64,000 bases of DNA from Podarcis gaigeae. Lineage: Eukaryota. How positions within the stretch are numbered: position 1 is the first letter of the stretch; every line of letters begins with the position of its first letter. The DNA lies in assembly GCA_964106915.2 (NCBI GenBank), contig OZ066917.1. One strand, given 5' to 3'. A model generated the notes under the pieces. It did not search any database and was not told the origin of the DNA. It worked only from the letters and a program-made list of their open reading frames with translations. This document shows positions 9,841 to 60,989 of the stretch, in pieces. Made by a program: the position numbers and the translations under genes.

Positions 9841-12800
9841 TGACAACTTGTCAGTCACATTGTGAATCTTTGCAACAAGAAGACAGCACACCTCCTGGGA
9901 CATGATGTTACCTCTACACACTTCTGCCTCTGTCCTCCTCAGTAGGAAAGTCAGAAGTCTGGGTGAAGACAGGATGCCCCCAGTGCTAGCCTTCTTATCA
10001 GTTATTTGGGAGGCTTAATAAGGAATCCTAGTGATTTACACACAGCTGGGGGGAAGCATGTAATAAAAGAGTTCTGTTCATTTTCTTCCCCTTACTTTGT
10101 ATAATATTAATCACCTTAGATCACACAGAACAGTCATTTTTAAAAAAACAACAACCACACACCTTGCAATGTGCATCTCATGTTTTATTTATGGTCTATT
10201 TTTATTCAAAGCTGTCCTCTTTTCCAGTGAAGACTTGCTCAGTTATAACAGCTGAGATATTATTATTTTTAAAAAAGTTCCATTTGCACTTTTCCTTTGG
10301 CACTGTTATTTGGGAGAGGAGGAGCAATTGTTTTTTAATATGGTTTGTCAGGTTGCTTTTGTATTGTTTTTGCCACTTGATACCAAGTACGTCCATTTGT
10401 TGAAAGTTCATCCTTTTTTTAAAAAAAATCTAAATAAAACATATAACAGGAGTTTGATTTTTACATAGCCCCTTTTTGCTACATAGCCACATTAGAAACT
10501 GGGAGCCCTAATCCAAACTGAATAAGAGGTTTAAAACTGAAGTGATACTTTACTGGCTTACTTCACTGACAGTATGTTTAGAAATTGCAACAATTGCTTT
10601 AGTGAGAATAATTTATTGTAATTGGAAGACATGGGGTTTGCTTATGTCTGGAATAATGCTACTGAGCATGAGTCATCTACACTTCAGAAGAATGCAAAGA
10701 GGTAAAAATCAAATTTTGTTTGACACCTGGATAAGTGCCTTAAGGCTATAAAACTGATGGCCTTTGATTGGAACGGCATCAGTAAAAACTGTTGCCGACT
10801 GCGCTGGGAAGAACAGGTTGAATATGACTATCTGAGATATTCCTAGAATATGGAAGGAATAAATAGATGTCAAAGCGCTTGACAGGTGCTTCAAAGAGAT
10901 AACTGTAATTATTTCAGTCTCAAGGACACTTAACATAACAGGAAGCATTTTGGTCAATCTGTTAACACTGACAATTTATAAAGTAGTTTTCATTTTTCTT
11001 AGAGACCTCAGTGCTAAAAAAACACATAGAAATCAGGTGGCCAAGCTTCAGGCTGCTTTAAAATATTTAATTGTGAGCTGCGCAGTTTAGGACTTTGGGT
11101 GGCGGGGGCTGTACTCCAGAAGAAGCCAGCGTATTACTTGCCTTAAACATTACATTCCCTTGTGCATGCATGTGAGATACAGTATATCAATAGCTGTGCA
11201 AATACTACAGACAACAGTACATGGCTTATCACTTCTAAGCTACACTCTTCTGCTCTGATATGAGCAACTAGCTTTCCACTGAAGCTGTATCTACATGATG
11301 AGAATAATTAGCTGTTTTAGTCCACCTTTCCCCTTGCCACTCTCTGCATCAGAAGCAGCTGATGCAATGAGTCTGAATCACTCTCTCAGTAATGGCGACA
11401 CTCAGCTTACAAGGGCCATGCAGGGTGGTGCAAGGCAGTGATGAGATTGGGACTAGAAGCCACTGTTAGAAGGGCAGGGCCGCAGGGTCACCTCACCGTA
11501 CCAGCTGCTCCTGCTCTGGATTTGGGCTTAGTATTGTTCTGAAACAGTGGTACTCAAGCTTTTGTTATACTCAAGTATAAAAACGGTTAAGAATTGGAAA
11601 ACTTAGAGGCATCTAAATTTAACCCCCCTGCATGACGCTATGATCATCAGGATCATATTTGATCCACCAGGCCTATGAATCCAGCTCTCGGTGTTCTCTG
11701 GGAGCCATAGCTCTCTTACTGACTAACTGTTCTCTCATTGTCCAGGCAGGTAAAGCAGAATGCTCTGCTTTGCCACTGGCCACCTTGAGTCTTCCAACTC
11801 AATCTTAATCAGAGTTCGCCATTCAGACAATACCAGCTGAAAGACTTGTGTGTTCAATTTCCTGCCACACACAGAGAGAAATTTCTGTGTCCTCTCTACC
11901 TCCCTGCCTCATGTTTTCCCTTGCTTATGCTAAATCTTTGTTTAGCTGAAGACGTCCTTCCCTTAATGGTTGCTCACAAGCCCTTCGTTTTGTGGCTTCT
12001 CTGAAGTCTTAGTGACAGTAGGCCCACATCACCAGTGAAATGGACACCTTGCACAAATAAGAATGGGAGTCAAGTCTTACAGGATGTGCTTCAGATGTCT
12101 AGGTGAAAACATGTGGCTTTCCCTACGTTGCTCAGAGTGCAGGAAAATGCAGCAGATTCATTTTGAAACATTGAAATTAGACAATAAAGACTCTTGAAAA
12201 ATTTACATCTGGGGAACCGTTTTCAGCATCTCATATTCACTGAGCAGCATACAGGGCATTTTCATGGTTCTATTTTCATGTTATTCCTAATTGCTTATTT
12301 TCTCCTAATACATTTCTTTCATTTCATTGTGGGTTTTTTTTAATGCATTCATGCAGTCACAAAGAAAGATTTCGCAGTTTGTTTTGTAACTCAGTTTCTT
12401 TAAAAGTGTCTAGAAGACCCAGTTAAGCAAGGGTCTTCCCCTCAACATACAATTATTTATCTATTTTAAAGTATTTATATACCACTTACCAAGTTCAAAA
12501 AACACAGAACCAATGGTGGCAGCTGTTGAGAAATAAGCTCTTCCAGTAGGCTGAACCGCTGGGCAGGATTAGAGAAGGGCTTTATTCTCATGAAAGGCAA
12601 CAGGGAGTTCAAAAGCAATAAAAATGGTTCTTAAAAACCTTCATAGAGCCCTAGTTCCTATGTGCTTAGATCCTGGATGGGAGGAAATCTTCATACTTCC
12701 TACCATTACTGAGCAGGATTGTGAACTTCAAGGACTCTCATCCTAGCTTCCCATAAATTCCGTTTTCTACTGAAGTCTCACAGCATCGGTGTATTTTCTT

Positions 12801-12946
12801 ACCTTATCACAGATGTTTTTCCTCTGGGAAGGTGGGGAGGGGACAAGTTCCTCAGATGCCATCTGTGGGTTCTGTTTTGCTGACTCCTGCTCATTGAAGC
12901 AATAGAATGTAAGAAGATTCATTACATGACATGACATTACATAGTG

Positions 12947-13086
12947 TTTCAGTGTATCTGAAGAAGTGTGCATGCACACGAAAGCTCATACCAAGAACTG
13001 ACTTACCGTAGTTGGTCTTTAAGGTGCTACTGGAAGGATTTTTTTTTGTTTTGACTATGGCAGACCAACACGGCTACCTATCTGTA
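12947..13086 (+). mobile_element. Short Penelope-like retroelement terminal-repeat (pLTR) insertion
   Basis: Exact 11-bp flanking duplication ATTACATAGTG (12936-12946, 13087-13097); sequence ...GTTGGTCTTTAAGGTGCTAC...CAGACCAACACGGCTAC matches my recollection of reptile Penelope-like termini; contains a hammerhead core. Confidence 0.85.
12954..12991 (+). ncRNA. Minimal type-I hammerhead ribozyme motif
   Basis: Helix I GTAT(12954-57)/ATAC(12988-91); core CTGAAGA(12958-64) plus extra A; helix II GTGTG-CATG-CACAC(12966-79); GAAA(12980-83); palindromic AGCT helix III; predicted cleavage after C12987. Confidence 0.85.
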
Positions 13087-14379
13087 ATTACATAGTGAGA
13101 TTCATGATAATGTTATCTAATCAGATGAAGTAAGATTCATGAACTTTAACTAATCAGATAATGAGTAGTTTACCAAAAAAAAAATCATTTATTTCTTTAA
13201 ATAATTTACTGTATATACCGCCCTTTGTACAAGCCACAGGCTGTTTACAATGAGGTCAGATGAGATAAAAGGAATACATAAGATCCACAGACAACACAGA
13301 CTTTAAAATACACAACTTATAATAACTCACTTACTAATACCTGCTATTTAACTATCTACACATTGATTGGTTTTTTATTTAAGACGTGGCAAAATATTTG
13401 GGTTACAATGGCTTATAGCCTATGTATAAATGTTTATATGCAAACAACATTCTATAGTGTTGAATTCATAGTAGTTATTGGAGAACTTAAAAAAACAACC
13501 TTGAACTTGCAATGGGACAAAGCTTTCTGGGACAAAGAAGAACTGTCCAGCAGTATATAGGAAGTGGATGTAAGCTCTTGTCTTCATTTGTATGAATAAA
13601 TCAAATAAATTATACAACCAAAAGGTTAACCAAATTATTTAAACATATGAGTGAAATCATTTGGGACCAATAAACCTATCTCAGTGATTAAACAAAAAAT
13701 TAGAAAGTTTTTCGAAGGTTATGTTGAGGTTTTTTATTTTGAATGTTTAATCCAAATAGGAAGAGATGGAAACATCTCTTGTGTGTTGTACATTTTCATA
13801 TTATATTATCTAAAAGAGGTGAAAACCTTTGCAAGTTAAGCATATTGCAGCTCCAAACATTAGACAACTGGCATTGGCACTACACTGTGTAAGGAATGTT
13901 ACTATGCAGCAAAATGCAGGTATGTAGGTGTGCCTGTGTAGGACAATCATGGCACATCACCTTTTGAAAAGCATAAAGCATTAAAGTCCAGAACCTTCTA
14001 GACAATCAGTTGTCTTGATTCAAAGGTAATAGTGTACTACAATACTTAGATTATACATGATAGATTTTGGAGGGGGTGGCAGCCTTGCTGTAGGGCAGTG
14101 TTGGAAATGTGGCTCTCTAATCTCTCTGTTGAGGCTTGCAGACTCTTCATACGCCACCCTCAGTCACTGGTCCTGCTCTTTGCCTTCTTCCTGCACTTTT
14201 ACATTTGCATGAACTCTGATCATGGTTCTTGCTTGCTAGAATGGAGGGTGGGGTGTGTGTGAGAAAGAGGCTTTTGTAAAGCAGGACTGTAGCCTTCTGT
14301 AAGAGTCACACCATGTCACATGCCACCATGTTACCTTCTCCCCTCTTGAACAGACAGGCAGCTTGGCTTTAACTTGCCA

Positions 14380-60110: not shown

Positions 60111-60458
60111 CTGGTTAGAACGACAACACAGCTGCTGAAGGAGGTGGCAGATTACAGTATCTAACAGTAATTAGGGCTCCCTGCCACCTATCTCTTAAAT
60201 TCAACACAAACAATGCTATATTTTCTGTCACAGGGTTGCTGAAACATTTGGCTTGCTTTTGTTATGAGCAACAGACTTAAAAGAAAGGGCTTATAGTATT
60301 AAAATTTTTAGGGTGCTGTCCTTCAACCTCTCAATTTTCATCAGCAGACTGATGCCTTTCAATGCAAATAAAGTTGAAATAAAGCTCAAAGTTCCTGATA
60401 TGGCATTGTATGTTATTTTATATAGATACATCACCTGCCCTTCCAAACTTTTTTGTAA

Positions 60459-60563
60459 AGTTTTTGTCTTATAAAATGGAGCTTCCAGAATTTAACTTGA
60501 AGAGAGAGAGGCAGTTTTTGTCTTATAAAATGGAGCTTCCAGAATTTAACTTGAAGAGAGAGA
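60459..60563. repeat. Exact tandem duplication, 51 bp, period 54
   Basis: 60459-60509 identical to 60513-60563. Confidence 0.97.
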
Positions 60564-60645
60564 TAGCCGTGCTTCGCAAGACGAAAAAACCGCAAGATGA
60601 AGAGACTCGCGGAACGGATTAATTTCGTCTTGCGAGGCACCACTG
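60564..60645. mobile_element. One end of a Tc1/mariner MITE
   Basis: CpG-rich, ...GGAACGGATTAATTTCGTCTTGCGAGGCACCACTG|TA; same terminal pattern as other CAGTGG MITEs. Confidence 0.8.
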
Positions 60646-60788
60646 TACTAGGGACGGAAAGAGTAGCTTCCGCCCCCTCCTTTTTCACAGACAGAAAGTA
60701 AAACAAACATGATCTGGTGATCCTTGCAATGGGAGGGATGAAAATACTGACATTCTCTCTTTTCTTTTCAGCATAGGTTAAAAACATA

Positions 60789-60989
60789 CATTAGACCCAC
60801 AACGTATGTAGGAGTTATGTTCTGGGGATAGTGCATAAAGCCAAAATTGCATATAGACAAAACACATTGGCAATCCCACCCACCATTGAAACCAAAGTTT
60901 CCCCTTCCTCCATTTTTATTTTTTTTAATTGCCAAGCGTGCAAAGTTGAATGTGCACAAGTTAAATGCATGCAAGTTGTGAGTCTACTG
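60789..60989. mobile_element. Tc1/mariner MITE (CAGTAGAC-type TIR)
   Basis: TA|CATTAGACCCACAAC ... GTTGTGAGTCTACTG|TA, 15-bp TIR with two mismatches. Confidence 0.75.

Follow-up and report, generated by a model that had tools for sequence, protein, structure and literature searches.

Minimal hammerhead ribozymes (min-HHR) are known from the pseudo-LTRs of metazoan Penelope-like elements and have been reported in Neptune elements, turtle and snakes (Cervera and de la Pena 2014, PMC4209133). As described there, they combine a short helix I with a long helix II, contain an extra base that separates positions 9 and 10.1, a G10.1-C11.1 pair and a loopless palindromic 15.2-16.2, and exist in thousands of solo copies that are associated with truncated elements. 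The 140-bp unit analyzed here, which lies in the window (the whole 64,000-nucleotide stretch of DNA under study), shares all of these traits. It differs in that its helix II is a perfect 14-nt palindrome, and we did not see the present family named in the accessible text of that paper, whose supplements may list the motif.

A second close system is Poseidon_Ac (PAc) of Anolis carolinensis (Frangieh et al. 2024, PMC11167929), in the literature searched the only report of a hammerhead-bearing Penelope-like element from a lizard or from Anolis. As in our case, PAc is built as pseudo-LTR, ORF, pseudo-LTR, and an optional tail lies in the start of the ORF; its reverse transcription (RT) starts at two internal points, as we propose for the present element too. 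PAc, however, belongs to the Penelope/Poseidon clade, whereas the linker found here is of the Neptune type. The PAc start codon lies inside helix II, whereas here the ATG follows about 60 nt below the ribozyme, and PAc RT starts 111-118 nt into the ORF, while the tail here ends about 30 nt into it. RNA ends at the PAc hammerhead cut site were not found, and a fixed 5' run-off boundary, present here, is not described for PAc in the accessible part of that paper.

The protein resembles those of Neptune-clade EN+ elements, which likewise have an RT, a CX4CX2C linker and, at the C-terminus, a GIY-YIG domain with a Cys/His pattern (PMC8557442); the label Neptune-type is given here on the linker motif, which Nematis shares (PMC8557442). 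Pen2a_Av of Adineta vaga also has a pseudo-LTR that includes the first codons and in which a putative TATA and initiator were noted in an arrangement similar to the one described below (PMC3846280). Its optional 31-bp tail, inverted pseudo-LTR, 8-10 bp duplications and solo pseudo-LTRs have their counterparts here. In contrast to the present family, Pen2a_Av is of low copy number and its solo pseudo-LTRs lack duplications and were ascribed to recombination or deletion, while its inversions were ascribed to self-priming on antisense RNA (PMC3846280). Metazoan non-LTR retrozymes, finally, are likewise ORF-less, hammerhead-bearing and related to pseudo-LTRs (PMC7229834; bioRxiv 10.64898/2026.07.22.740005). 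They are, however, arranged head to tail in tandems of 150-450 bp and are expressed in circular form, whereas here a solo monomer is found and the ends ignore the cut site. The motif class, the element anatomy and the tail are already published. We did not find the 5' run-off edge with its extra G in the literature searched (outside subscription papers, Repbase and supplements, with the supplements of the retrozyme preprint being one place that may list the motif).

The unit and its parent element

The unit is the terminal segment of a pseudo-LTR together with the first 10 codons of an autonomous Penelope-like element. Its make-up of hammerhead, 5' UTR and tail is how the ends of such elements are known to look (PMC8557442; PMC3846280). 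Its features are collected in Table 1, with q1 set at window position 12947.

Table 1. Features of the solo copy and its flanks (positions in the window).
Feature	Position	Strand	Remarks
Left target-site duplication	12936..12946	+	11 bp; last 2 nt match the element upstream too
Solo stub of Penelope-like element, pseudo-LTR end and tail (q1-q140)	12947..13086	+	alignment to both ends of L183
Initiator-like TCAGT and predicted transcription-start cluster	12947..12954	+	cluster at 12951-12954 (q5-q8), predicted from the 5'-end pile-up
Minimal type-I hammerhead motif	12954..12991	+	sequence reading; class per accessible text of PMC4209133; cleavage predicted
Helix I	12954-12957 / 12988-12991	+	GTAT / ATAC, 4 bp
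Hammerhead core	12958-12964, 12965, 12980-12983	+	CTGAAGA, extra A, GAAA
Helix II	12966-12979	+	perfect 14-nt palindrome
Helix III and C17	12983-12986, 12987	+	AGCT, loopless; predicted cut after 12987
TA-CCG-TA, likely excision footprint	13004..13010	.	intact DNA element at the same TA in L286 and L299; excision probable
Element 5' UTR, T-rich tract	13010..13056	+	first preferred 3' end of copies at the end of the UTR
First 10 codons of the element ORF (MADQHGYLSV), the tail	13057..13086	+	second preferred 3' end
Right target-site duplication	13087..13097	+	11 bp, sequence reading

The hammerhead core, the 14-nt palindromic helix II, the AGCU helix III and the 4-bp helix I, all claimed by the earlier note, are indeed present. 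So is the exact 11-bp duplication that bounds the unit (ATTACATAGTG), which occurs exactly two times in the whole window; the insertion boundaries are ambiguous owing to a microhomology of 2 nt (TG) on the 5' side and 1 nt (A) on the 3' side. The assignment to the minimal hammerhead class also stands, with the published letters of the Penelope-like type all found: a CUGANGA plus GAAA-UH core, the extra base 9/10.1, G10.1-C11.1, the palindromic 15.2-16.2 and a helix I within 4-5 bp. The bare core pattern occurs in the window at chance level (8 matches against 5.6 expected) and the unit folds no better than shuffled sequence (z -0.96). The Rfam hammerhead models, proposed earlier as a check, matched nothing between 12000 and 14000 at E<=10. 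Exact copies of the 38-nt hammerhead number 9,021 in the genome, against none of its reversed control; this count and the fixed place in the terminal repeat of an element show that the motif is real. A 28-mer further downstream is present in 15,583 exact copies, again with zero for the reversed control.

We found the whole element at the genomic locus L183, where a pseudo-LTR, a 910-aa ORF with RT and GIY-YIG domains and a second pseudo-LTR follow each other. The 140 nt are present at both ends, and about 234 nt upstream of q8 are common to both ends as well, so that the pseudo-LTR arises from a partial tandem. ORFs of 910 and 915 aa were also seen in L187 and L188 (15 regions examined), and some relatives of the unit continue upstream into the GIY-YIG frame. 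A Penelope origin, as the earlier note had it, is thereby confirmed. What that note had missed is that the element's ORF begins in the 3' part of the unit, and that five extra bases in its spacer are likely a transposon footprint. The proposed youth of the family holds too: the genome contains 5,400 candidate matches to the GIY-YIG protein piece, and all 150 of the 150 scored are 97-100% identical and without stops. Pfam detected RVT_1 (PF00078, 46.5 bits) and GIY-YIG (PF01541, 25 bits) in L046, both above the cut-off. The element thus has the hallmarks of an EN+ Penelope-like element, namely a single ORF coding for RT and for a GIY-YIG endonuclease at the C-terminus, an inverted 5' copy and a one-sided tail of 30-40 bp. 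In L183 the linker between RT and endonuclease reads CNKPRCQLC, which fits the CX2-5CxxC motif and is retained in turtle relatives.

The nearest named proteins to the ORF are from turtle, at 61-69% identity. Compared with P0003, P0005 and P0007, the L183 ORF is 59-68% identical to turtle elements, with the next relatives at 44-53%; if the host is a lizard, this closeness raises a transfer between lineages, which is worth testing. Older relatives of the terminal repeat (82-90% identity) with altered hammerhead letters exist at L046:4882-4942 and in several arms and could give covariation evidence. Elsewhere in the window, the frame at 60431-60790 resembles the start of the element's ORF, and without a unit match there it is not the Penelope-like element. 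A short repeat-like stretch at 60560-60650 on the minus strand, which starts TACAGTGGTGCCTCG and adjoins a 58-nt direct duplication, is likewise unrelated to it.

The five extra bases of the window copy sit at a TA of the spacer, and only 49 genome copies have a C after that TA. Two of 30 such copies that we read (L286 and L299, at G000:C2:75771253 and C9:625491) carry at this very site an element of 1.25-1.35 kb that has CCGTA...TACGG termini together with a TA duplication, and TA-n-TA remnants are found in 5/30, the window copy included. The additional bases are therefore likely the excision footprint of this DNA element, which, going by its TA target, may be of the Tc1/mariner type. The element is without a long clean ORF. 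Both spacer alleles carry TA-n-TA remnants of varied form at this position, and the TA is likely a preferred target site within the retroelement.

Ends of the copies across the genome

For the end counts we used L183 as a natural full-length reference, in which the ATG lies at q105; the window copy is 6 bases longer, and its last base corresponds to about q134-135 in L183 numbering. The main sample consists of the first 100 matches on contig C1 to a probe covering q59-86, of which 99 were mapped, while a first BLAST sample, biased toward rare variants and query ends, was left out. In the main sample 27 of 99 arms have their 5' end at q5-8 and 33 at q1-9, with 42 ending within q10-58 and 24 upstream of q1. 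Expressed per nucleotide at risk, the end rate is 0.159 at q5-8, compared with 0.016 at q10-29, 0.007 at q30-58 and 0.003-0.005 upstream, which confines the peak to 4 nt where helix I begins. No pile-up is seen at the cut site, where q40-44 received 3/99 5' ends (rate 0.007, equal to background). A second sample, drawn with a hammerhead probe, gave 56 arms with a 5' end at q1-9 among the 99 of 100 mapped, and genome-wide only 2,722 of the 9,021 exact hammerheads reach exactly to q-2. The 5' boundaries are hence not randomly scattered, which the earlier note had named as speaking against a discrete family. Ordinary truncation is nevertheless common too, since so many arms end inside the unit or upstream of q1. 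The window copy itself starts at q1 to q-1, which is 5-9 nt upstream of the peak.

The 3' ends are bimodal, at about q86-105 (where alignments halt early in the T tract) and at q126-143, so that of the two preferred points one directly precedes the ATG and the other lies some 30 nt inside the ORF. Head-to-head pairs make up 36 of the 118 insertion groups of both samples, and 32 of these 36 pairs combine one tailed with one short arm. A duplication of 9-15 bp flanks 12/18 solo short arms without the inverted signature, and a same-strand neighbor within 600 nt was found at only 3 loci among 99 arms. Direct partial tandems, in which an ORF-entering copy is followed by a unit starting at about q6-q8, are seen at L128, L154, L159, L194, L195 and L004. 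They probably reflect jumps between templates at the RNA's 5' end, and nowhere else could two copies build a double hammerhead in cis.

The edge in L183 overlaps TCAGT, and 30-33 nt above q5-q8, from q-25 on, stands the motif TATATAG. From their core-promoter spacing and from the like arrangement noted in the rotifer element Pen2a_Av (PMC3846280), we read them as a putative initiator and TATA box, respectively. The window copy is without the TATA motif. In 2,456 cases genome-wide the base before q8 departs from the reference T, and of these 1,606 have G, 505 A and 345 C. In the samples a G precedes 17/26 ends at q8 but 15/87 other ends (p=6e-6). An extra G opposite the cap is a feature of other retroelements. 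The extra G is not always untemplated: inspection by eye offered another explanation in 9/30 copies, either the end of an inverted arm (5/30) or the last base of the duplication (4/30). The ORF-bearing copies L106, L120 and L124 start at q8 as well, showing that the edge belongs to the coding RNA. Together these DNA ends suggest that transcription starts at q5-q8. The Penelope of D. virilis uses an internal promoter without TATA (PMC2377424), so the use of a TATA box is not general.

The RNA data come from a related species, as fragmented libraries aligned to L183, and by their nature cannot show RNA starts or cut ends; no pile of ends is listed at q5-8 or at the cut site. In run X23, strand-biased reads over much of the L183 ORF are consistent with sense transcripts. 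Reads leave the element at the same edge, with loose ends at L183 1822, 4831 and 4832, so that the edge is shared in the related species. As a side observation, the related-species RNA covers the RT and endonuclease part and almost none of the first 450 nt of the ORF (L183:4262-4624), which suggests that the copies expressed there are truncated or diverged.

Origin of the solo copies

We consider it quite probable that the locus holds the terminal segment of a Penelope-like retrotransposon that is young and autonomous, and that this segment, which went in by itself with an 11-bp duplication, is a likely dead-end product of the element's own RNA. In the mechanism that we propose, a capped RNA would start at q5-q8 beneath the TATA box of the upstream pseudo-LTR. 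The element's protein would nick the DNA and begin RT internally at two points, before the ATG and about 30 nt into the ORF. Priming so close to the 5' end of the RNA would lead to run-off after 100-130 nt and leave a solo stub, while priming on both target strands would give a head-to-head hairpin, and the ribozyme would be copied uncut, as a passenger. The stubs would be promoterless because the upstream TATA stays behind. The window copy would have been templated either by RNA from a minor start upstream of the peak or by a longer RNA that was truncated at this point, two cases that a single copy does not distinguish. The anole Poseidon protein offers a parallel, as it nicks both strands in vitro and begins RT internally, at the two sites that delimit the tail, and as it inserts uncut RNA, the hammerhead being dispensable for insertion (PMC11167929). 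Most copies in the genome are, we believe, probably strong-stop-like run-off cDNAs which record the capped RNA start at the first base of helix I. It seems rather unlikely to us that this run-off is coupled to a working decapping switch, in which the cut removes a 34-nt capped leader and so silences or retires the mRNA, and only uncut RNA is copied; cutting would in that case require a second copy or the element's protein.

Could the unit owe its length to chance, with a full-length cDNA that was primed at the 3' pseudo-LTR being cut short at its 5' end by ordinary random truncation? Penelope-like elements are normally much truncated at the 5' end (PMC8557442), scattered upstream ends are seen in 24/99 arms, and the window copy, which starts outside the peak, may fit such an origin. 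Random truncation does not, however, account for an end rate that is 20- to 50-fold higher in 4 nt, nor for the excess of G, nor for ORF-bearing copies that share the 5' boundary. We therefore regard it as improbable, and as an explanation of the whole population it is ruled out by the peak at q5-8. The boundary itself might instead be a splice acceptor, with TTTCAG ending at q6, or the point at which a 5'-3' exonuclease halts at the folded hammerhead. A pyrimidine tract and CAG do end at q6, 19 sampled arms seem to begin there, and in D. virilis the 5' end of helix I marks where an intron stops (PMC4209133). The solo copies, however, have no constant upstream exon before the boundary, the class with an extra G before q8 lacks the T that would be kept by an acceptor at q6, and ends left by an exonuclease would carry no extra G, which makes either variant very improbable in our view.

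The least credible reading is the one favored by the earlier note, a discrete non-autonomous SINE- or retrozyme-like family with source copies of its own, cut by its hammerhead and moved in trans. Recurrent ORF-less units with similar ends, of which 12/18 solo short arms have the 9-15 bp duplication, would agree with it, as would the few same-strand tandems and the proposal that animal retrozymes derive from pseudo-LTRs (bioRxiv 10.64898/2026.07.22.740005). Against it, the unit is the end of an intact element and private variants are absent: at the one variable spacer site that could be compared, the two common alleles stand at 26:19 in short and 18:12 in long arms (Fisher p=1.0). Rfam gave no tRNA, 5S or 7SL head at E<=10 in 12000-14000. 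For a retrozyme one would look for head-to-tail tandems of at least two units and an RNA unit delimited by ribozyme cuts, but the window holds a single unit match, tandems are confined to the 3 loci mentioned above, and the 5' ends do not lie at the cut site. In addition, there are two alternative 3' ends, with hairpin pairs built from both, and the TATA is left behind. The shared alleles, the missing TATA, the rare tandems and the ends that ignore the cut site lead us to view the stubs as a by-product and not as a family of their own.

Ribozyme activity and meaning of the stubs

Because helix III is loopless, it cannot form within one molecule. Minimal hammerheads are reported to be inactive as monomers and weak as dimers (PMC4209133), 8/9 Xenopus dimers tested did not cut (bioRxiv 10.64898/2026.07.22.740005), and the anole Poseidon hammerhead cuts only with protein bound (PMC11167929). 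The earlier suggestion that palindromes let two copies pair in trans for cutting is not borne out by folding, which predicts that two copies pair via helix II (-30.6 kcal/mol) in preference to a double hammerhead (-11.1). Nor did we find support for the idea that a host pre-mRNA is cut. There is one copy of the unit in the window. We compared with Pfam the 148 ORFs of at least 52 aa whose start lies in 1-24.9 kb (390 in the whole window); none reached the cut-off, and short exons would be missed by such a search. With no host exon found and the helix II duplex favored by the model, host pre-mRNA cutting appears unlikely.

Since motif and element type are known, the locus itself is ordinary, and the population signal carries more weight. 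It bears on how Penelope-like elements begin and complete their copying and on the purpose of their hammerhead, questions for which one in vitro system exists. The intact ORFs, the two fixed 3' ends, the sharp 5' edge with its extra G and the lack of ends at the cut site provide base-level predictions for an element of the Neptune type. The stubs can also be mis-annotated as SINEs or as retrozyme monomers. If the run-off origin is true, they would be thousands of natural genomic read-outs of both RT start points and of the transcription start.
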